Below, piece after piece: positions 3,898-61,619 of a stretch of DNA of 64,000 nucleotides; the first letter of the stretch is position 1, and each line of letters begins with the position of its first letter. Below the pieces are notes generated by a model. The model was given only the letters and a program-made list of their open reading frames with translations, was not told the origin of the DNA and made no database searches. The position numbers and the translations under genes are program-made. This DNA is from Spirochaetia bacterium. GTDB lineage: Bacteria; Spirochaetota; Spirochaetia; CADAEX01. The stretch lies in NCBI GenBank assembly GCA_963662265.2, contig CAXXHA010000011.1, positions 1 through 64,000 on the forward strand. Reading direction: 5' to 3'.

Positions 3898-3969
3898 ATA
3901 ATAACATGTTTGCAGGGAGCCTGATCAGCTTAATAAAGCTGTATCATATATATTAAAATATTTTACATC

Positions 3970-4000
3970 AAAAAACCTCTTCGAAGTGAAGAGGTTTTTT
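3970..4000. terminator. Bidirectional intrinsic terminator
   Basis: AAAAAACCTCTTC-GAAGT-GAAGAGGTTTTTT between convergent genes. Confidence 0.85.
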
Positions 4001-4473: not shown

Positions 4474-4884
4474 TCTAAATACTCCTTTCACTGATAATAC
4501 ATATGGTTCCGAACTGCGGTTTGACGGAATGTTCCGGAAGCATCAGAATTAAGATAAATTGATTGGTTACAGTTTTTCATGCTTCAATGTATTCTGAAGG
4601 AAGACTGAACATTTCATAACAGCTTATTCGGTTATATAAAGGAACTTTCCTGACAGGTATTCCCTTAAATTCCTTGGATAATCCGGGTTATCAGATTCAG
4701 CATTACTGTAAGCTGTATGCAGAGCTACTTGCATAAGGAGGTTTTATATTTCCCGGGTCAGCCGTGTTTCGTTCATACCGGGGATGCCGTTGTGTTTTAT
4801 AAAATCACAGAACATAAGCTGTTTTATAACGAAACATCCAATACTAAGGGATGTAATAAAAATAAGTAAAACAGTCCTAGTAAT

Positions 4885-4913: not shown

Positions 4914-5190
4914 GAAAAAAGCTGTACTTAATGAACATAATGTTACAAAAGTGATAATCATTTTTTCTGATGCAGAAAAGGAAATTGCAAATAAAATAAA
5001 AATATAGCATAATATTATATCGAATCACCGTAATCAGGTTGTTTCTGTATATTGATTCAGCAGTTTTGAAATAATTAAGTTTTCTATACTGCTGATTTCC
5101 TATATAATGGGATCAGGGTAAGCTGACGGGAGTATCTGCTTCTGATCAGTTTTACTTTTTATGCCTATAAAACGATTTAAGGACAGTATT

Positions 5191-16072: not shown

Positions 16073-16103
16073 AAACCTGCGGTTGTATGCTGCAGGTTTT
16101 TTT
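16073..16103 (+). terminator. Intrinsic terminator
   Basis: AAACCTGCGG-loop-CTGCAGGTTT followed by T run. Confidence 0.7.
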
Positions 16104-16178
16104 ATCATTGTATATAAGCTTTGTATTGTAAAGGTTTGGGTCGGGTATTTCTCAGGATATGATTGTTTTAAAGTGGTA

Positions 16179-28188: not shown

Positions 28189-30290
28189 AAGTACTACCAG
28201 AAAGACAACAGAAAAAACTCTGCTTATTGTAGAGTCTCCGGCTAAAGCAAAAACAATAGAAAGGTATCTCGGCAAAGGATATACTGTATCAGCATCAATG
28301 GGACATCTTATCGATCTTCCCAAGTCGAGAATGGGTGTTAATGTAGACGGCGATTTTGAACCTGAATATATAACAGTAAGAGGCAAGGCTAAAATACTGA
28401 AAGATCTTAATTCAAAAGCCTCAAAATCCAGCCATATTCTTCTCGCATCTGATAATGACCGGGAAGGAGAGGCAATCTCTTTCCATCTCAAGAGTGCTCT
28501 TGAGAAAAAGGTTAAGGATGTAAAGATTGAAAGAATTATATTCAATGAGATAACACCGACAGCTATCAAGGCTGCAGTCGAAGATCCCCATGAAATAGAT
28601 ATGGGTAAGGTAAATGCACAGAAAGCAAGGAGAGTTCTTGACCGTATCGTAGGATACAACCTCTCTCCTCTTCTGTGGAAAAAGGTTAAAAACGGACTAT
28701 CTGCAGGAAGGGTCCAGTCTGTAGCACTCAGGCTTATTTCTGAAAGGGAAAAAGAGGTTGAAGATTTTATTCCTCAGGAGTACTGGACACTTGATGCTGA
28801 GCTGAAGAAGGACCGAAGCAGATTCAAAGCCCAGCTTGTGACATATAAGGGTGAGAAACCTGAACTTAAGGACAGGGAAAGTGTTGAAAAGCTTGTATCT
28901 GTTTTTGAAGGTAAGGACTTTTCAGTAAAAGAGATCAAGTCTACCGAGAAAAAACTTCAGCCAAGGGCTCCCTATATAACTTCAAAACTCCAGCAGGATG
29001 CGGCTAACAGACTCGGTTTCACTTCCAGGAAGACAATGCAGATTGCACAGCAGCTTTATGAAGGTATCAACATAGGTTCGAGCCGTGTGGGACTTATTAC
29101 CTACATGAGAACAGATTCAACCCGTATATCTGACCAGGCTCTGGGAGAAGTCAGGAAATATATCGGGGATAATTACCCGGAAGACCTTCCTGAAAAACCT
29201 GTTAATTACAGTATGGGTAAAAGGGCGCAGGATGCTCATGAGGCAATCAGGCCGACTTTTGCCGAATATACACCTGAATATATCAAGGAATATCTGACAA
29301 GAGACCAGCTTAAACTCTATACAATTATCTGGGAAAGGTTTGTTTCCTCCCAGATGAAAGGTGCTGTGTCTGTAACTACAACAGCGGATATTGAATGTGA
29401 AGACGGAATTTTCAGGATAAGCGGTACAAAGGTAAAGGAAAAAGGTTTTCAGAAAGTTCTCAAGCTTCTTGCTAGCAAGGAAAAGAGTGCAAAAGTACCA
29501 AGGCTGAAAGAGGGAGATTCCCTTAATTTAGAGGAATTCATACCTGAGCAGCATTTTACCCAGGGACCTGCAAGATATACAGATGCAAGTATTGTAAAAG
29601 TGCTTGAGGAAAAAGGTATTGGCCGCCCATCGACATACGCGCCTATTATATCACTCCTGATTGACCGGTATTACGTAGTCAGGAAAAACAGGCAGCTTGT
29701 CCCGACAGTCCTTGGAAAAATGATCAATCAAATCCTGATATCATCATTTCCCGATATCCTTGATGTGAATTTTACAGCAGAAATGGAAAAAAAGCTTGAT
29801 AATGTTGAAGTTGAAAAAAACAACTGGTCCGGAATGATTTCTGATTTCTACTCACCTTTTAAAAGCAAGGTTGACCATGTAATGGAAACACTTGAATCGG
29901 TAAAAGGGGTAATGGATGAGGAAACTGATTACGAGTGCGACAAGTGCGGCAGGAAAATGGTCAAGAAACTCGGGCGGTTCGGTTATTTTCTTGCATGTTC
30001 AGGTTTTCCTGAATGCATGAATACAAAATCTGTACCTCTTGCAGACTGCCCGAGACCCGGATGCGGCGGACAGATTGTTGCAAGAAAGAAACAGGGGGGA
30101 CGGGGAAAGGAATTCTACGGATGTACCAACTATCCTGAATGTGACTTTATAAGCCACAGTAAACCCTCTTCAAAAATATGCCCTGAATGCGGTTATTTCA
30201 TGGTTGAGAAATATGACAAGAAACGGGGGTACATACTATTCATGCAGCAATACTGAATGTAAAAATTCTATGGAGGCTGACTCCGAATAA
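28181..30290 (+). CDS. topA: DNA topoisomerase I; ORF closes at 30256, probable frameshift in the last zinc ribbon
   Basis: IVESPAK, DREGE, GRVQS, ITYMRTDS, C-terminal Zn ribbons; shifted frame continues CSNTEC to TAA ~30290. Confidence 0.95.
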
Positions 30291-31182
30291 TGGAAAAATT
30301 TCTGGAATATCTTGATACAGTCCTGAATCTCTCACATGCAACAGTAAAAAGCTACAGGGCAGATATAAAGCAGTATTTTGATTATCTTGAAGATAATGAC
30401 TGTGATTTCAGGAATCCGGAAAAAAATACAGGAAGAGGATTTGCAGCATACCTTTCATATGCCGGTCTGAAAGCCTCTTCCGTAAACAGAAAAATCTCTG
30501 CGCTTAAAAAATTCTATGATTTTCTGCTTAAAGAGGGGGCTGTAGAGTCCAATCCTTTTTCTGCACTTGGACATCTTAAAGAGGAAAAAAAGGCTTCCAG
30601 AACATCTGCAGTTGGAGGAGGTCGAGAGAATAAGAAATTTTATAGATACAGAAAGCAGAGATGAGTTTACAATGTACAGAGACCGGGCTCTTGTTGACTT
30701 TATTTTTTCAACAGGCTGCAGAATCTCAGAAACTGTTTCACTTGACTATGAGGAAATCAGTTTCCGTGACTGCTCAGTAAGAGTTACTGGTAAGGGAGAC
30801 AAGGAAAGAGTTGTCTTTCTCAGCGGTAAAGCATCTGAATCTCTCGTGAAATACAGGGAATCTGCAGTTATGAACGGGAAATTCAGCAGGGGAAAGAGAA
30901 ACCCGCTGTTTGTCAACAGCAGGGGTGAGCGTCTTACAGTCAGGGGGGGCGTTCTATTTAATTGATAAAATTATAAAAGGGGCCGGAATCCAGAAAAAGG
31001 TTTCTCCCCATACATTGAGACATACATTTGCAACGCATCTTGTTGATCAGGGGGCTGATATCCGGATGGTACAGGAAATGCTGGGGCACTCCAGCCTTTC
31101 CACCACACAGATTTATACCCATATCGGTATATCAAGACTCAAGGATGTCTACAGAAAAGCCCATCCGCACAGCAAGAGCTAA
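30290..31182 (+). CDS. xerC: Tyrosine recombinase XerC-like; frameshifts at A7 (~30586) and G7 (~30943)
   Basis: Three overlapping ORFs give the SAM-like N-domain, [19 protein letters not shown] and [20 protein letters not shown]. Confidence 0.85.
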
Positions 31183-31348
31183 AAACAAAGTTTTTAGCGA
31201 AGCGACAGAGACTTTCTCGAAGAGAAAGTGCTCGAAAGCGACTAAGTAAGAGCTAAAAACAAAGTTTTTAGCGAAGCAAAGAGACATTCGTTTACGAATG
31301 TGCTCGACAAGACAGAGACTTTCTCGAAGAGAAAGTGCTCGAAAGCGA
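31174..31348 (+). repeat. Composite cluster of a dispersed hairpin element (3 core copies, 2 leading hairpins)
   Basis: Exact 30-bp repeat at 31174-31203 and 31248-31277; exact 38-bp repeat at 31204-31241 and 31311-31348; variant core at 31280-31307. Confidence 0.9.
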
Positions 31349-31369
31349 TAAAGGAACAGGTAATAGTTT

Positions 31370-31921
31370 ATGGAAGAAAATAGATCAGGTTTCAGGGGAA
31401 CCACAGTACTGGCAGTTAGAAAAGAGGGATCTGTTGCAATGGCAGCAGACGGGCAGGTGACACTGGGGAATACAGTGATGAAGGGGTCTGCACGAAAAGT
31501 GAGAAAAATCTATGATGGAAAAGTTATTGTAGGTTTTGCAGGTGCCACCGCAGATGCCTTTACCCTGTTTGAAAGATTTGAAGCCAAGGTAAGCCAGTAT
31601 AACGGGGATATTACAAGATCTGCGGTTGAACTTGCAAAGGAATGGAGGACTGACAGGGCCCTGAGAAGACTCGAGGCCATGCTTCTTGTTGCCGACATTG
31701 ATAAGATCCTTCTTATTTCAGGAACAGGAGATGTTGTGGAACCTGATGAAGGAGTTATCGGAATAGGAAGCGGAGGAAGCTTTGCATATTCTGCAGCACT
31801 TGCATATCTTGAAAATGAAAGTATGAAAGCAGGCGATATAGCTCTTAAATCGCTTAAAATCGCTTCAAAAATATGTATCTACACTAATGATAATTTTGTT
31901 CTGGAGGAATTAAATGCTTGA
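31370..31921 (+). CDS. hslV: ATP-dependent protease peptidase subunit HslV
   Basis: [31 protein letters not shown]. Confidence 0.97.
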
Positions 31922-33327
31922 ACTGGATAAACTGACACCGAAACAGACAGTTCAGAACTTGATAAATATATAATAGGTCAGGACAAGGCAAAGAAAGCTG
32001 TAGCTGTAGCCCTGAGAAACAGGGTCAGGCGTCAGAAACTTGACGAGTCGCTGCGCGAAGAAGTTGCTCCCAAGAATATTATAATGATCGGTCCTACAGG
32101 GGTTGGTAAGACAGAGATTGCAAGACGGCTTTCAAAGCTCTGCGGCGCTCCTTTTGTAAAGGTAGAGGCTACTAAATATACAGAGGTCGGGTATGTAGGC
32201 CGTGATGTGGAGTCAATGGTACGAGATCTCATGAATGTTGCTGTAAATATGGTGAAAGCCGAGATGAAGTACCAGGTTGCTGAAGCTGCAGAAGCCAGAG
32301 TTGAAGAGGTAATTCTTGATCTGCTTCTTCCCGGACTTAACAAGAAAAAAACCGAAACAGAACAAGCCTTCACCGGTTTCCCCTGATGTTATTCAGCTTC
32401 CTGATGACAGCTCTGCAGAAATTGAACAGGCTTCTTCTCCGGAAACTTCCACTACAAGGGAAACTTTCAGGAAAATGCTCAAGGAAGGCAAGCTTGAAGA
32501 CAAGGAAATCGATGTAATGGTGTCAAAAGAAAAATACACCTTCAATTGAAATATTTTCAGGTACAAATCTTGAGGACATGGATCTAAACCTCGGCGGATT
32601 CGCAGGACTTCTCGGCGGAGGCAAAAAGAAGAAAAGGAAAATGTCTGTCAGAAATGCCAGGGAAGTGATACTCAACGAAGAAATTGACAAGCTTATTGAT
32701 ACTGACAAGGCATCTGACATAGCCAAGCAGCGTGTTGAAGAGATGGGAATTATTTTTATCGACGAGATTGACAAGGTTGCAGGAAAGGAGTCAAGAAGCG
32801 GCGCTGATGTATCGAGGGAAGGTGTGCAGCGGGATATTCTTCCCATAGTTGAAGGAAGCAAGATTAATACAAAATACGGAATTATTGATACATCTCACAT
32901 TTTATTCATTGCTGCCGGTGCATTCCATATGAGTAAGCCTTCAGACCTTATTCCGGAACTCCAGGGAAGGTTCCCTATCAGGGTTGAGCTTGAATCGCTT
33001 GGAGCTGAAGAATTTGAGAAGATTCTTATTCAGCCTGAAAATGCACTGATAAAGCAGTATGTTGAGCTGATGAAGACAGAGGAAGTTAACCTTGTTTTTA
33101 CTGATGATGCTGTAAGAAAGCTCTCGCAGCTGGCTGAAGAGGTTAACTCAAGAACAGAAAATATAGGGGCAAGAAGACTTCACACAATGATGGAGCTTCT
33201 TCTTGAAGAGATTTCATTTGAAGCTCCTGAACTTGCGGGGCAGTCAATAACAATAACTCCTGATTATATAAATGAACGACTGGGTAATGTTATTGAGGAT
33301 CAGGATTTAAGCAGGTATATCCTGTAG
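31914..33327 (+). CDS. hslU: HslU ATPase; about three apparent frameshifts (~31952, ~32382, ~32530)
   Basis: [55 protein letters not shown]. Confidence 0.93.
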
Positions 33328-37690: not shown

Positions 37691-37932
37691 CCATTACTGT
37701 GAAATTGTGAGTTTATGATATAAGTATGATTATTTATTTTGTTTTGCAGCAATTTTGATTATCATGCAGTTATTTATGTAATTTTTGCTGCTGTTTTTAA
37801 CAGCAGCGTCTGCCGGCAGAGTAATGCCATATAAGCTTTAAAGGCTTGATAGGTTGTTTTGATACCGGCAGATAATATATGCGGAAAGCCGTAAGAGATA
37901 AATACGGCAATTCTGTTTCCGGAGGTGTATTA

Positions 37933-38858
37933 ATGGCACGGAATGTATTCAGAGCCAAAGAAATAGTTGATCTTCAGTCAACCGTAATTATTGAACCTGC
38001 AATAGAAGAGGTTGAAGAGGTTGAGGAGGAAATGACTCTTGAGGAATATACAGGTCCGACTGCCGATGATCTCCGGAGAGAAGCTGAAGCTTTCAAAGCC
38101 TCCTGGGACAGTGAGCGGGAGAAGATGATATCTGATGCCCGCAGTGAGGCTGAAAGGATTATTGAAGAGGCCAAGCAGACTGCATTTGAGGAGATAAAAA
38201 AGGGTAAAAATGAAGCCCAGAAATCAATGCAGGAAGCCAGCGACAGCGCTGATGCAATAGTCAGGGATGCAGAGGAAAAAGCTACTTCCATACTCAGCGA
38301 TGCTGATGAAAGAGTCACAGGGTATTGAAAAAGATGCTTTTGACAAGGGATTTAATGAGGGACGGGATACCGTTTTTGAAAGCGGTAAGGGAGAGGTCGA
38401 GAGGCTTATTGATAAGGTTCAGACAGTTCTCAACAATGCCATAGACAAGAGAAATATGATTATCGAGGAATCGGAAACACAGCTTATAAACCTTGTCCTG
38501 CTTATTTCCCAGAAGGTTATTAAGGTTATATCTGAAAATCAGAAAAAATGTTGTTATAAACAACGTTATACAGGCTCTCAGGAAGCTTAAGACAAGGGGT
38601 GAGGTTATTGTAAGGGTTAACCTTGCCGATGTTCAGCTTACTACCGATCATATCAAAGACTTCATGAGAATGGTTGATAATATAAGGTCTATTACAGTTC
38701 TTGAAGATTCAACAGTCGACAGGGGCGGGTGTATTATTGAAACTGATTTCGGAGAAATTGATGCAAGAATTTCATCTCAGCTCAATGAAATCAGGGACAG
38801 GATACTGGAACTTGCACCTATCAAGACAAAGGCTGAGGTTGAAGAGGATTTTATGTAG
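37933..38858 (+). CDS. fliH: Flagellar assembly protein FliH; frameshifts ~38320 and ~38545
   Basis: AxxxG repeats; GGCIIETDFGEIDARI; RBS GGAGG before ATG 37933. Confidence 0.9.
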
Positions 38859-38997: not shown

Positions 38998-40315
38998 ATG
39001 AGCACTATTTTTGAAAAATACAGTGATGTACTCGATACGACAGATCCAATCAAATTCACAGGAAGGGTAATAAAGGTTCAGGGGCTTCTTATAGAAAGTT
39101 CGGGGCCGAGAGTTATTCTTGGTGAACTCTGCTATATCATAATAAATGACAAAGATGTTATATGGGCAGAAGTTGTGGCCCTCAAAGAGGACTCGGTGCA
39201 GCTTATGGCATATGACTCCATGGAGGGGATAGAAATAGGCTGTCCTGTAGTTGCTACAGGAGATTTTCTTAAAATACCTGTCTCCTCAAAAATACTCGGC
39301 CGTGTGGTTGACAGCATGGGAAGGCCTGCCGATGACAGTGGCAATATAAGATCTGCTTCAAAAATATCTGTTTTTAATTCACCTCCCGACATACTGAAGC
39401 GTAAAATGATTACTGACCAGATACCTACAGGTGTAAGGGCAATTGATTCAATACTTTCAGTAGGTATGGGACAGAGAATCGGTATTTTTTCAGGTGCCGG
39501 AGTCGGAAAGTCAACACTCCTTGGAATGATTGCACGGAATACTGAATCCGATGTCAATGTTATTGCGCTAGTAGGAGAGAGAGGGCGTGAAGTTCTGGAA
39601 TTCATTGAAAATGAACTTGGAGAGGAGGGGCTGAAGAAGTCTGTTATTGTTGTCTCATCATCAGACAGCCTGCCTATAGCAAGGATACGGGGATCATACA
39701 CTGCAACTGCAATTGCGGAATATTTCAGGGACAGGGGCAAGAAATGTCATGCTGTTTTTCGATTCCCTGACCCGTTTTGCAAGGGCGCAGAGGGAAATAG
39801 GGCTTGCAATAGGCGAACCTCCTGCAACAAGAGGGTTCACTCCTTCTGTTTTTACCGAGATGCCCAAGCTTCTTGAAAGATGCGCCAATTCAGATAAAGG
39901 GACAATCACAGGTTTTTATACAGTTCTTGTCGAAGGTGATGATCTTGATGAACCTGTTGCAGACAATGCCGAAGGTTTTCTCGACGGCCATATAATTCTG
40001 GACAGGAAACTTGCGGAATCAAACCATTATCCTGCCATAAACATACTGAAATCAATATCACGGCTTGCAAATAAGATTACATCAGCAGATGTGAGGAACG
40101 CAGCAGGTTATATACGGAACAAGATGGCTGTATATACAGAAGCCGAGGACCTTATAAATGTTGGGGCCTATGCTCGCGGTTCCAATCCCGAAATTGATGA
40201 GGCTATTGCAAAGCTCCCGGAGATAAAGAAATTTCTCATACAGGATATTGAGGAGAGAACAGAAATTGAGGAAACACTGATGCAGGCTGCCGGGATAGCC
40301 GGTATCAGTAAATAA
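38998..40315 (+). CDS. fliI: Flagellar export ATPase FliI; frameshift ~39742
   Basis: GAGVGKSTL, GERGRE, DSLTRFARAQREIG, LDGHI. Confidence 0.95.
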
Positions 40316-40328
40316 TGGCTGAGGTGAG

Positions 40329-40778
40329 ATGAAGGAATTCGCGTTCAGGATGGAAAAGCTGCTCGAGATAAGAAAATTCAAAGAGAGGGAAATATCTCTT
40401 GAGCTGGCAGAAGTTACCGGACGGGTGATAAGCAAGGAAAATGAAATAAAACGTTTTGGCGCGATGAGAAAAACAGATTTTAAAAAACCGTTTCAATTAT
40501 GCCGATAATAATCTGAGTGCGGATTCAATGTTTCATGACAGCCAGTTTTTCCGCAGTAAGTGAAAAGATAAAGCAGCTTACTGAAGAACTGGGTGAAATA
40601 GAAAAAGAGCGTGATAAGGTGCGGGAAAGATATATAGAAGCACTGAAAGATAAAAACGTACTTGAGAAGCTCAAGGAAAAGAAAATGGCGGAACACAGGA
40701 AGAGGGAAATGGGTAAAGAGGAAAAAAGCCCTTGATGATATATCAGTTACAAGTTTTACAATAAAACTACAGAAATGA
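40329..40778 (+). CDS. fliJ: Flagellar export chaperone FliJ; about three apparent frameshifts
   Basis: MKEFAFRMEKLLEIRK...; VLEKLKEKK...EEKALDD after reframing; RBS GAGG. Confidence 0.82.
40481..40508 (+). promoter_or_regulatory. Candidate sigma-28 promoter inside fliJ
   Basis: TAAA-16 nt-GCCGATAA (15 nt if the frameshifting A is an error). Confidence 0.5.
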
Positions 40779-40839
40779 CAAAAAACTTGTTTTTGTCATG
40801 AGCGGCAGAGACTTTCCGAGAGGAAAGTGCTCGAAAGCG
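40775..40839 (+). repeat. Copy of the dispersed hairpin element (fliJ-flbB spacer)
   Basis: ATGACAAAAA-ACTTG-TTTTTGTCAT, then CAGAGAC-TTTCC-GAGA-GGAAA-GTGCTCGAAAGCG. Confidence 0.88.
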
Positions 40840-40854
40840 TAAGGAGGTTCAATA

Positions 40855-41491
40855 ATGGGTATAACAGGAAGCGCGGGTGCAGGAATCAGAATTTTTGTTC
40901 TGCTTCTTCTCATAGCAGCAGTAAGTTTCGGCGGTATAATTTGGTTTGATTACCTGGGAATAATTAATGCACGTGAAAGTCTTTCATCTGTTTTTTGCCC
41001 TGTTCAGCAAGGAAAAAGTTGTAAAACTGAATAATGATGAAGATATGATGCTTCTTGACAGGGAGCGATTCAATAAAATGAAAGAAGCTCTGACTATACA
41101 GGCGGAAGAGCTTTCAAAAAAGGATGAAGATCTAAAAAAAAAGGAAGTTGCCATAACACAGAAGCTTGAAATGCTTGCAGAAAGGGAAAAGGCACTCGAA
41201 GAAAGAGAAAAATCATTTAATACCCGAACAAGATTGTACGAAAATAAAATAGCGAACCTTGAACAGTCATCAAAATATCTTGTAGGTATGCCGCCTGAAA
41301 ATGCAAGAGATATTCTTCTGAAAATGAATGATCAGGATGTAATTGATATTTTGAGAGTTACTGAGAGGCTTGCAGAAGAGGCTGGCGAGAGTTCGCTTGT
41401 CGCTTACTGGCTTTCTCTCCTGCCTGCAGATAAAGCGGCAGCTATACAGAGAAAGATGACAATAAAGCCTGATGATACAATCAGTAATTAG
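40855..41491 (+). CDS. flbB: Periplasmic flagellar collar protein FlbB; frameshift at T6 ~40992
   Basis: RBS AAGGAGG; RIFVLLLLIAAVSFGGIIWFDYLG; coiled coil; GMPPENA; SLVAYWLS. Confidence 0.85.
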
Positions 41492-59195: not shown

Positions 59196-61145
59196 ATGAA
59201 AGAAGTTTTGGACCTTCCTGAATTCAGAACATACATGAAAGAGCTTGCTGAAAAGGACAGGCAGATAAAGTCTGTACAGATAAATGCTCCTTCACTGGAA
59301 GAAGGTCTGAAAGAAGCTGCCATAGAGCTCCAGGTTTCCGAAAAAAAACTTGAATATGAAATAATTGTAAAAGGTTCAAAAGGATTTCTGGGATTCGGGA
59401 AAAAAGACTATAATCTGGTAGTTTACAAGATTGAGGATGAAGAGGAAAAATCTGATTTTCTTGACAACCTCGGCGTTGATGAATTTGTTGAAGATGAAAA
59501 AATTCAGGACAGGGACAGTGAGATAATTATTTCTCTTTTTAAAGGGGATGTTTTCATGAAGGTAACACCTCCTGTCGGAAATGGTATCAAAGCTTCGGCA
59601 GATGAGGCAATTGCAAAACTAAAAGAACGCTCTGTAAGCAACTATAATCCGGGTCTTATATCAAAAGTGATAAAGCTTGCTGATAATATGCAGGTGAATA
59701 TCGGTTCATATATACATAATCCTGCAAATGATTCCATACTTTCCCTTAAAATTGAAGAAAGCGATATGAAAGCATATGTTGTTTTCTCTCCTCCCGGTCC
59801 AGGCGGCAGTGATATAATAAAAGACACTCTGCTGTCATTTTTAAAGAATAATTCTGTCATTTACGGTGTCGATGAAGAGAGGATCGAGGATATTCTGGAC
59901 CATCCTTTCTATAATGAGCCGGTTCTGGTTGCAGAGGGATCTCCTCCTGTAAACGGAAAAGATGCTGTAATAAAATATAATTTCAATACTGAAGTTGTTC
60001 CCTCTTTCATGCGTGAGAAGGGGGGCAAGATAGATTTCAAGGACAAGAACCTTGTTCAGAATGTTGTTGCAGGACAGATACTTGCGGAAAAAATACCTGC
60101 TGAAAAAGGGGTAAAAGGGCGGACTGTTACAGGAAAACCTCTTGAAGCAAGAAACGGTTCAGATGTTGAACTTAAGATCGGCAACAATGTGGAACTTTCA
60201 AAAGACGGGTTGAAAGTCACTGCAGAGTGCAACGGCCAGGTCATGATGCTGAATGACAAGATTACAGTTGAAAATGTCTATGTAGTTGATGGTGATGTTA
60301 ACCTTACAACAGGAAATATCCATTTTCTCGGTACAGTAATTGTAAAGGGAAGTGTTGAAGACGGATTCTCGATAAAAGCTACCGGCAATATCGAGGTAAT
60401 GGGGAATGTCGGTAAATGTAATCTTGATGCTGTGGGTCATGTAATTGTTCACCAGGGTATCAACTGCAAGGAAGGCGGACTTGTTAAAGCGGGCAAGGGT
60501 GTTGTCGCGAAATTCATACAGAATTCAAATGTTGAGGCTGATGAAATTGTTCTGGTCAGTGACGGTATAATAAATTCATTTGTTGATTCAAATAACAAGA
60601 TTATCTGCCGTGGTAAGAGAGCGACTATTGTAGGCGGCAGAATCAGGGCAACAGAAGAAATATCTGCAAAAACATTCGGTTCACTTGCAGTGGGACAGAC
60701 AGACCTTGAAGTAGGCTTTGATCCGAGAAGCAAGGCAAGGCTTCTGGAACTTGAACAGAAGAAGCATGAAGTTGAAAAGGAAACTGATGATATTGACAGG
60801 AACCTTGTGACTCTTGAAAACATGAAAAAGAAAATGAGGGGTAAATTCCCTGAAGACAAGGAAAAAATGCTTGAATCGTTCAATACCAAGATGATGGAAC
60901 TTAAAGCTGACATGGAAGAAATTGAAAATGAAACCGAAGAAATCCATAAATACCTGCAGTCGCTCAAGCATGTAGGCCGCGTATCAGCAGCCGGAACAGT
61001 ATATCCGGGTGTAAAAATAACTATCAGGGATGCACACCTTGATGTGAAAAATGAACTCAAGAGAATTACTTTTGTAAATGAGGAATCTGTAATTAAGACA
61101 AAGAAGTATGAAGAGCCTGAAGAAGAATCCTTGGAAGAAGAATGA
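59196..61145 (+). CDS. FapA/DUF342 protein with Jag_N-like N-terminal domain
   Basis: SLEEGLKEAAIEL..GSKGFLGFG; TGNIHFLGTVIVKGSV; VYPGV. Confidence 0.85.
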   Translation: MKEVLDLPEFRTYMKELAEKDRQIKSVQINAPSLEEGLKEAAIELQVSEKKLEYEIIVKGSKGFLGFGKKDYNLVVYKIEDEEEKSDFLDNLGVDEFVEDEKIQDRDSEIIISLFKGDVFMKVTPPVGNGIKASADEAIAKLKERSVSNYNPGLISKVIKLADNMQVNIGSYIHNPANDSILSLKIEESDMKAYVVFSPPGPGGSDIIKDTLLSFLKNNSVIYGVDEERIEDILDHPFYNEPVLVAEGSPPVNGKDAVIKYNFNTEVVPSFMREKGGKIDFKDKNLVQNVVAGQILAEKIPAEKGVKGRTVTGKPLEARNGSDVELKIGNNVELSKDGLKVTAECNGQVMMLNDKITVENVYVVDGDVNLTTGNIHFLGTVIVKGSVEDGFSIKATGNIEVMGNVGKCNLDAVGHVIVHQGINCKEGGLVKAGKGVVAKFIQNSNVEADEIVLVSDGIINSFVDSNNKIICRGKRATIVGGRIRATEEISAKTFGSLAVGQTDLEVGFDPRSKARLLELEQKKHEVEKETDDIDRNLVTLENMKKKMRGKFPEDKEKMLESFNTKMMELKADMEEIENETEEIHKYLQSLKHVGRVSAAGTVYPGVKITIRDAHLDVKNELKRITFVNEESVIKTKKYEEPEEESLEEE

Positions 61146-61199
61146 TAAATACCTGTCATTCATGGCAGAGGCTTCCTGATAAGGAAGTGCTCGATAGCG
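61140..61199 (+). repeat. Diverged copy of the dispersed hairpin element
   Basis: GAATGA..TCATTC hairpin, then CAGAGGC-TTCCT-GATA-AGGAA-GTGCTCGATAGCG. Confidence 0.8.
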
Positions 61200-61286
61200 C
61201 TTAAGAATAAATGATAAAACCTGTTTTATCATTGTAAAAAGAGACTATCCTATAGGAACGTTTTCTAAAGCGCTGAAGGAGGAATA

Positions 61287-61619
61287 ATGCCTATACAGCC
61301 TATTGATCTGCAGACATTGTTTGTGAAAATGAATCAGGTCGGCAGGGAGCAGGCAGCTATAAAAAACAGCGCTGTTGTGCAGCAGGAAATACAGGGAAGT
61401 GAAATTGTAAAAAAGCATCAGCATGATGATAAAAGTGTTCACCGTGCGGAAACTCCTGAATCTGGATCGGAAAAAGTCAGGGAAGACGGGCGTCACGGCA
61501 ACACTCAACAGCAGAAAAAAAGGATGAAATCTGAACAGGAAGAGGAAAATAAAGCTGCTCCTGAAAAGGAAATCTTAAGCGATCCTGACCTTGGCAATAA
61601 AATTGATTTCAGCGGATAA
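61287..61619 (+). CDS. Hypothetical protein
   Basis: RBS AAGGAGG; MPIQPIDLQ...DPDLGNKID. Confidence 0.8.
   Translation: MPIQPIDLQTLFVKMNQVGREQAAIKNSAVVQQEIQGSEIVKKHQHDDKSVHRAETPESGSEKVREDGRHGNTQQQKKRMKSEQEEENKAAPEKEILSDPDLGNKIDFSG

Follow-up and report, generated by a model that had tools for sequence, protein, structure and literature searches.

What are the short, hairpin-forming sequences that recur in the spacer between xerC and hslV of a Spirochaetia bacterium, and again at other gene junctions nearby, and what might they do there? We addressed this question in a 64,000-nt stretch of DNA (hereafter the window; positions 1 to 64,000 of contig CAXXHA010000011.1, assembly GCA_963662265.2), for which an earlier note, made from the letters alone, had proposed a dispersed, mosaic-forming element whose structure is kept while its sequence varies. 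The family is real and is common to at least two spirochaete genomes, and the best reading groups it with REP/BIME by kind and sets its layout beside that of MIRUs, with units that multiply locally into tandem or mosaic clusters. Each unit runs from a variable hairpin (H1) through a short linker to a second hairpin (H2), which consists of (A)GAGAC, a stem of 5-6 bp, a loop of 3-4 nt and GTGCTC with a bulged G, and closes with the tail GAAAGCG.

H2 is a hairpin of 28-29 nt with six copies in the window, five exact to the pattern and one degenerate, at three gene junctions: xerC/hslV, fliJ/next gene and fapA/next gene (Table 1). The pattern AGAGRC-N(8-30)-GTGCTCGA matches the window five times, at the starts of copies c1 to c5 and always on the plus strand, and matches none of 100 dinucleotide-preserving shuffles. 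A covariance model (R1), run with filters off over the window and three loci of a second genome, a metagenome-assembled genome (MAG) described below, recovered 14 copies at 27-58 bits, with the next best match at 15 bits. The copies that the earlier note placed at 40775 and 61140 are real, these coordinates being the starts of the preceding H1, and its observation that copies face the direction of transcription extends to all six, including the degenerate c6 that it lacked. The dispersed and mosaic character that it described is likewise borne out. At xerC/hslV (spacer 31183-31369) the order is H1a, GCGAAGC-GAC, c1, AAGCGACTAAGTAAGA, H1b, GCGAAGC-AA, c2, CAAGAC, c3, AAGCG, 22 nt and the hslV ATG, and the two 38-bp cores reported there as exact repeats (31204-31241 and 31311-31348) are indeed identical, with identity stopping at the next base on either side. 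The H1 pair of this cluster is identical, yet the c1 and c2 stems differ at nearly every position, so recombination or conversion acts on the modules independently; judged by these comparisons, clusters are mosaics and not simple diverged duplications.

That H2 is kept as a structure was assessed on an alignment of eight distinct copies (five from the window and three from the second genome) covering 5-6 loci. The fold, GAG-AC followed by the stem, the loop and GU-(bulged G)-CUC, has energies of -4 to -11.6 kcal/mol, and the flank pairing with its bulged G, which the earlier note had drawn by eye, is present in all minimum-energy folds for seven of the eight copies; the different, fully paired stem that it gave to the middle core (c2) also agrees with the folds. 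Standard pairs fill 97.5% of the 80 alignment cells, and three of the ten pairs are changed on both sides (UA to AU; UA to CG; CG to UA or GC), a covariation reached by 0 of 500 shuffles, whereas sliding the pairing partner by 1-3 columns as a control left only 35-56% paired. These results, which agree with the claim of conserved structure under varying sequence, support selection that keeps H2 paired, and the support is modest rather than strong statistical proof because only eight distinct sequences contribute. Sequence is conserved as well: each of the eight copies is headed by AGAGAC or AGAGGC, and outside the helix lie (A)AGCG-GC on the 5' side and GAAAGCG on the 3' side. RNAfold indicates that five of the eight copies could gain two G-C closing pairs around a purine-rich 4x4 internal loop, with no covariation at those pairs.

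Evidence from outside the window comes from a contig scan with AGAGRC-N(12-18)-GTGCTCGAWAGCG, a pattern of 17 bases plus two degenerate positions, which matched at least 102 stretches. Among the matches listed, 99 of 102 are chance occurrences in unrelated phyla, mostly GC-rich, and the other three loci (L010, L091 and L093) belong to one Spirochaetes bacterium MAG. At least five consecutive inner pairs were found in just three of the 99 chance matches listed, against all six matches in the spirochaete MAG, and R1, applied to 717 kb from the 99 listed unrelated loci, hit only the sites preselected by the pattern, all at or below 29.1 bits. This one MAG has eight H2 copies, which have identical flanks (GGCAGAGAC...GTGCTCGAAAGCG) around the stems TTTCC-AGA-GGAAA, TTTCC-GAA-GGAAA and TTTCT-GAA-AGAAA.

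The MAG copies form arrays of tandem units. At L010 a sense-oriented array separates a LolA-like gene from a 506-aa open reading frame (ORF) and leaves 12 nt to the ATG; AAATCGATAG and AAAGCGATAG (5184-5190 and 4809-4815, minus strand) border this array. With the array removed, a compact junction remains in which the stop codon TAG overlaps the Shine-Dalgarno (SD) sequence TAGGAG, so that the locus looks like a filled insertion site or an array of microhomology-mediated origin. L093 holds a superoxide-reductase-like gene, then the array, then the contig end, and L091 holds a contig end, the array and a rubredoxin-like gene (both genes named by eye from their translations); L093 (1-230) and L091 (200-493) are probably two sides of one superoxide reductase (SOR)-rubredoxin locus, split by the array in a short-read assembly. 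The third H2 copy of L091 is decayed and has lost its 3' flank. In the last unit of each MAG array (L010 4853-4990 and L091 about 200-290, both minus strand) H1 is split by inserts, TGGTCGCAAAC...GCTCGACCATGCA and a second GACAC-GAA-GTGTC, and the MAG therefore contains additional repeat modules in combination with H1 and H2. The two genomes have similar GC content (0.39 in the MAG, 0.40 in the window) and are probably not close, because none of the 120 listed relatives of the MAG ABC ATPase lies on a contig with the window's nearest HslV relatives, which we take as a hint only.

H1 is the more variable of the two hairpins and stands 5' of five of the six window H2 copies (all but c3). Its window form is AT-rich, xxAAAAC-loop-GTTTTxx; AAAAC-N(2-4)-GTTTT matches six times against 0.48 expected, and four of the six matches are H1. 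Every H1 beats nearly all shuffles in folding energy. Copies a and b, which the earlier note had recognised as one hairpin preceding two of the cores, belong to a 33-nt repeat that is 97% identical, and, as it also noted, the hairpin runs into GCGAAGC (31197-31203). The MAG H1 is unrelated to that of the window and GC-rich (ATGGGC-GACAC-GAA-GTGTC-GGGGACCCAT). The short linker from H1 to H2 often ends in AGCGGC. A defining role for the GCGAAGC mini-hairpin, to which the note drew attention, does not survive the comparison, the heptamer adjoining only two of the six window copies (c1 and c2) and no MAG copy.

The position of the units, with an SD-sized gap on the 3' side and the upstream stop codon on the 5' side, is the strongest argument for a constraint at the level of RNA or expression. 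At the last H2 copy of each window junction the bases between the tail and the ATG are the SD and its spacer (TAAGGAGG after c4, GAAGGAGG after c6), and the distance from the terminal full copy to the ATG is 12-22 nt across the three window junctions and L010. On the other side, H1 starts at the upstream stop codon or within about 40 nt of it, overlapping or closely trailing the stop at xerC, fapA, the LolA-like gene and the SOR-like gene; at xerC the stop TAA (31180-31182) falls within the 5' arm of H1 copy a. All 5 or 6 loci are sense-oriented and lie between co-directional genes. Scans for terminators gave no plus-strand site in 30800-31700, 40400-41100 or 60900-61500, and an intrinsic terminator on the sense strand was dropped as a candidate, neither H1 nor H2 having a U-tract after it. 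The antisense versions of H1 and H2 scored as terminator-like (for example window 31252-31336, minus strand) because a pyrimidine-rich run follows the antisense hairpins, an asymmetry that could account for the sense-only orientation inside operons. Scans for sigma-70 promoters gave no site within the elements and one weak site 5' of the c4 H1 (40735-40762). A spurious antisense ORF read across the window array (P0127) had no homologue found, and its counterpart across the L010 array (P0128) had one match, an unrelated repetitive protein.

Table 1. H1 and H2 hairpins at the three gene junctions of the window.
Feature	Junction	Position	Strand	Sequence	Score or energy	Remarks
H1 copy a	xerC/hslV	31178..31198	+	GCTAAAAAC-AAA-GTTTTTAGC	-8.6 kcal/mol	2/200 shuffles as good
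H2 c1	xerC/hslV	31207..31240	+	AGAGAC-TTTCTC-GAA-GAGAAA-GTGCTCGA	51.6 bits	tail AAGCG
H1 copy b	xerC/hslV	31252..31272	+	identical to copy a
H2 c2	xerC/hslV	31280..31307	+	stem ATTCG-TTTA-CGAAT	29.2 bits	fully paired; no AAGCG tail
H2 c3	xerC/hslV	31314..31347	+	same as c1		tail AAGCG; 22 nt (ATAAAGGAACAGGTAATAGTTT) from tail to hslV ATG 31370
H1	fliJ/next gene	40775..40799	+	ATGACAAAAA-ACTTG-TTTTTGTCAT as folded, or ATGACAAAAAC/GTTTTTGTCAT		second form has one extra C-G pair
H2 c4	fliJ/next gene	40807..40839	+	TTTCC-GAGA-GGAAA	58.1 bits	tail AAGCG; 15 nt (TAAGGAGGTTCAATA) from tail to ATG 40855
H1, degenerate	fapA/next gene	61140..61161	+			own ATG overlaps fapA stop TGA 61143-61145
H2 c5	fapA/next gene	61167..61199	+	AGAGGC, TTCCT-GATA-AGGAA	52.4 bits	tail TAGCG
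H1, second	fapA/next gene	61210..61233	+	AATGATAAAA-CCTG-TTTTATCATT as folded
H2 c6, degenerate	fapA/next gene	61240..61272	+	3' flank GTTTTCTA	43.7 bits	two stem positions unpaired; tail AAGCG; 14 nt (CTGAAGGAGGAATA) from tail to ATG 61287

Comparison with described families gave no match. Rfam 15 returned 0 matches at the gathering score over the whole window, and at E values up to 10, over the three window junctions and the MAG array, only sub-threshold noise that reached no gathering score (eukaryotic small nucleolar and long non-coding RNA families, and the unrelated bacterial small-RNA, antisense or marine-motif families SraC/RyeA, rivX, Spy392987 and IMES-1), so that the earlier statement that no known family fits holds for these searches. 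The motif strings occur in the searched literature in no relevant context, as coincidental primer and spacer sequences only. Small structured repeats are almost undescribed in free-living spirochaetes; the one survey found goes no further than predicting REPs in three Spirochaetota genomes (PMC12306157). Several other candidates were set aside: a group II intron domain V, a PyrR loop, boxB/nut, a K-turn and an integron attC on sequence inspection, with no Rfam matches; a sigma-28 promoter in GCGATAA, a string that is not conserved across copies; and an anti-SD switch, for which the H2 5' arm offers the SD only three Watson-Crick and two G.U pairs, H2 itself folding at about -10 kcal/mol.

REP and BIME sequences carry a conserved GTAG-type tetranucleotide at the palindrome head, form clusters in alternating (inverted) orientation and, once transcribed, make hairpins in the mRNA that influence its stability segment by segment. 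The likeness that the earlier note saw to them holds in kind, both being multi-copy, short, imperfect palindromes that are extragenic, often inside operons, and build mosaic clusters with other short motifs. It fails in the particulars: H2 has no GTAG head, copies within clusters repeat directly on a single strand rather than in inverted order, and here two unlike hairpin modules, sense-only in the loci seen, abut the SD. REPs measure about 35 bp, with a range of 21-65, in the accessible text of PMC3184786. MIRUs, which the accessible parts of PMC3184786 and PMC12548453 describe as 40-100 bp long, intercistronic in operons, co-oriented, in variable tandem arrays and present in polycistronic mRNA, are the closest analogue in layout, the H1-H2 units being intercistronic, sense-oriented and tandem too. 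They differ in that MIRU ORFs overlap neighbouring start and stop codons, whereas here the frame is not kept and a covarying hairpin is conserved. Correia/NEMIS, ERIC, BOX and RUP elements, which create RNase sites or alter mRNA stability, share with the present family a dispersed, intergenic, hairpin-forming character, and are co-transcribed with neighbours, as is predicted here. They are, however, MITE-like sequences of 100-200 bp with terminal inverted repeats and target duplications, as against a core of 43 nt here; the ends of our unit have no inverted match, and flanking direct repeats are found only at L010. PATE elements, derived from IS200/IS605, have subterminal imperfect hairpins with bulged bases, no terminal inverted repeats and strand-specific insertion. 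Imperfect hairpins with bulged bases and the lack of terminal inverted repeats are shared, but H1 is unlike H2, no TnpA gene lies nearby and the copies are tandemly amplified. Stem-loops of this type are reported from Borrelia plasmids (PMC2775950).

Our preferred reading, which we hold tentatively and at somewhat less than an even chance, is an undescribed (as far as searched) family of small, modular, structured intercistronic repeats of free-living Spirochaetia that are transcribed in operons, with H2 insulating or stabilising the downstream cistron. The H1-H2 unit would be transcribed within the operon mRNA, and its sense orientation would be tolerated because neither hairpin has a U-tract on its 3' side and the antisense versions look terminator-like. 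H2 would occupy roughly positions -15 to -50 relative to the next cistron and probably act there as a structural insulator, a 5' protective RNA hairpin, and H1, beside the upstream stop codon, would act as a 3' barrier. The unit would thereby make each cistron independent of its neighbour in stability and translation, an effect that REP/BIME and similar repeats have elsewhere. Candidate sources of the tandem copies are slippage and unequal exchange at microhomology, whereas new loci would call for some other mechanism.

Several points weigh against this reading. Transcription, processing and an effect on expression are all inferred. Kinship among the H2 sequences can by itself outscore shuffles even where no structure exists, the two strands fold with equal energy in five of the eight distinct copies, and the DNA stability of the recurring C-GAA-G triloops fits a role in single-stranded DNA (ssDNA) too. 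A G.U pair, which exists on the sense strand alone, gives a strand preference to c5 and to no other copy (-11.4 kcal/mol sense against -7.5 antisense), because the strand gap of 0.9 kcal/mol in c4 comes from the loop and c6 is a degenerate copy. Orientation to transcription and to replication are inseparable here because nearly all window genes lie on the plus strand and GC skew is positive throughout, and no direct regulatory switch is visible because H2 does not occlude the SD.

The strongest rival, which we consider rather unlikely, is a DNA-level mobile element of REPIN or PATE type, in which H1 and H2 would be ssDNA hairpins for a Y1/HUH transposase (RAYT or IS200/IS605 TnpA) encoded elsewhere and the orientation would follow the replication strand. 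It would account for palindromes that are imperfect, carry a bulged base and have conserved flanks in single-stranded form, for copies that are both dispersed and clustered, and for the location of the window genes on the strand of positive GC skew, and the L010 array between AAATCGATAG and AAAGCGATAG, with its tidy stop/SD junction once the array is taken out, is what it would lead one to expect. The C-GAA-G triloops, found in two of the eight distinct H2 copies (c1/c3 and L091a) and in the MAG H1, also favour it, GAA triloops closed by C-G being especially stable in DNA in the accessible text of PMC13037366. The mobility that the earlier note had suggested nevertheless finds no enzyme: no transposase or HUH domain was present among the 81 ORF translations scanned (the 64-kb window and the 10-kb L010 locus), and no RAYT gene was seen in these 64 + 10 kb. 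Moreover, the left-end and right-end hairpins of IS200/IS605 resemble each other, whereas H1 is unlike H2, and the GTAG head and inverted copy pairs of REPs and REPINs are missing. Strand bias alone, finally, does not predict that the units should fit so tightly between the stop codon and the SD.

A bolder reading holds that a spirochaete protein or RNase recognises H2, with its invariant flanks, its bulged G and the GAAAGCG tail, as a conserved signal in RNA, and that H1-H2 is a portable intercistronic expression module which inserts in the gap from a stop codon to the following SD, bringing a defined processing or insulation site with it. We regard this as unlikely; if true, operon stoichiometry would be partly written by a mobile repeat. 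Less probable again is a dedicated cis-regulatory RNA operator, in which the H2 flanks and bulged G would be bound by a spirochaete protein or RNase, itself conserved, and translation or processing of the downstream cistron would be set in this way, the repeats together making up a regulon. Identical H2 flanks in two genomes despite unrelated H1, the covarying stem, the fixed distance to the SD, the sense orientation of every copy and the possible GC/GC closure around the purine-rich internal loop in five of eight copies are all in keeping with such an operator. The downstream genes, however, are not united by function (besides hslV they comprise a flagellar gene, rubredoxin, one gene for a secreted protein and an unknown one close to cheA), tandem copies and decay, as in c6 and in the third copy of L091, resemble repeat dynamics and not a maintained operator, and the partner protein is still only postulated. 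CsrA sites present GGA in a hairpin loop, and H2 is not of this type because its loop holds GGA in none of the eight distinct copies, GGA lying inside the 3' arm in five of them.

We give a poor chance to a MIRU-like translational-coupling cassette, whose mini-ORFs would pass ribosomes from the upstream stop to the downstream start so that insertion leaves operon expression undisturbed. This model was tested because most H1 begin with ATG and form stop/start overlaps, with ATGA at the fapA stop, TGATG at the fliJ stop and a further overlap at the 3' end of the c4 H1; the intercistronic, tandem, sense layout is also that of MIRUs in the accessible parts of PMC3184786 and PMC12548453. Chains of mini-ORFs (8-57 codons, with gaps of at most 12 nt or ATGA/TGATG overlaps) bridge 40736-40854 and L010 4795-5186 and are thus unbroken across the fliJ/next gene and L010 spacers. 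At the other three of the five junctions (xerC/hslV, fapA/next gene and SOR/rubredoxin) they are broken: 115 nt without a start codon follow the xerC stop, and H2 is untranslated in the SOR/rubredoxin array and in c6. Across copies H2 is read in all three frames and its peptides are not conserved, the unit lengths (74, 96-97 and 107 nt, the second being that of the MAG arrays) are not multiples of 3, and the downstream genes retain their own SD, strong except for the weaker one of hslV. The last rival, an assembly artefact or chance resemblance, is refuted for the family as a whole and could touch only tandem copy numbers: many frameshifted genes make the window assembly look error-prone and the L091 and L093 arrays sit at contig ends, but 0 matches are expected by chance, stems differ at three separate window loci, the element occurs independently in a second assembly, and single copies such as c4 are independent of how tandem arrays were assembled.

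REP, MIRU and Correia-type repeats influence the stability of mRNA, the stoichiometry of operons and the plasticity of genomes, and serve as typing markers. Whether repeats of this sort are only tolerated or serve to tune expression in long operons such as the flagellar superoperon is a question for which the H1-H2 family is tractable, because its 43-nt core is compact and open to modelling, its stem covaries, its place between stop codon and SD is strict and a second genome conserves it. Tandem copy number is likely to vary among strains and likely to break short-read assemblies, as it apparently did in the MAG.

The surrounding DNA is spirochaete core chromosome, with the dcw cluster, xerD, dprA, topA, xerC and hslVU, followed downstream of hslVU by a flagellar superoperon from flgB to flhG and then fliA, fapA and cheA, all on the plus strand; the nearest HslV relatives belong to Spirochaetales or Spirochaetia, with identity up to 95%. 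Several genes are split into 2-3 overlapping frames, namely xerC (30290-31182, three frames through apparent frameshifts), hslU (31921-33327), fliH (37879-38858), fliI (38998-40315), fliJ (40329-40735) and the gene at 40855-41491, and some of the breaks fall at homopolymers (A7 at 30585, G7 at 30943, A6 at 38543 and T6 at 40991); these split core genes reflect either assembly indel errors or decaying genes. Seven genes, including ftsZ, fliF, fliI and fliP, have runs of G6 to G10 1-3 nt 5' of the ATG (13720, 19669, 24307, 34920, 38987, 49699 and 50339), which occupy the place of the SD yet lie much nearer the start codon than usual, and tracts of this kind are liable to errors in length or to phase variation. 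The genes 3' of c4 and c6, in contrast, have the canonical site AAGGAGG, and hslV after c3 has a weaker AAAGGAA/CAGG. Two strong terminator-like hairpins unrelated to the H1-H2 element were also found, one at 3968-4000 (AAAAAACCTCTTC...GAAGAGGTTTTTT) between convergent genes and one at 16073-16104 (AAACCTGCGG...CTGCAGGTTTTTTT) after a glycogen-branching-type gene.

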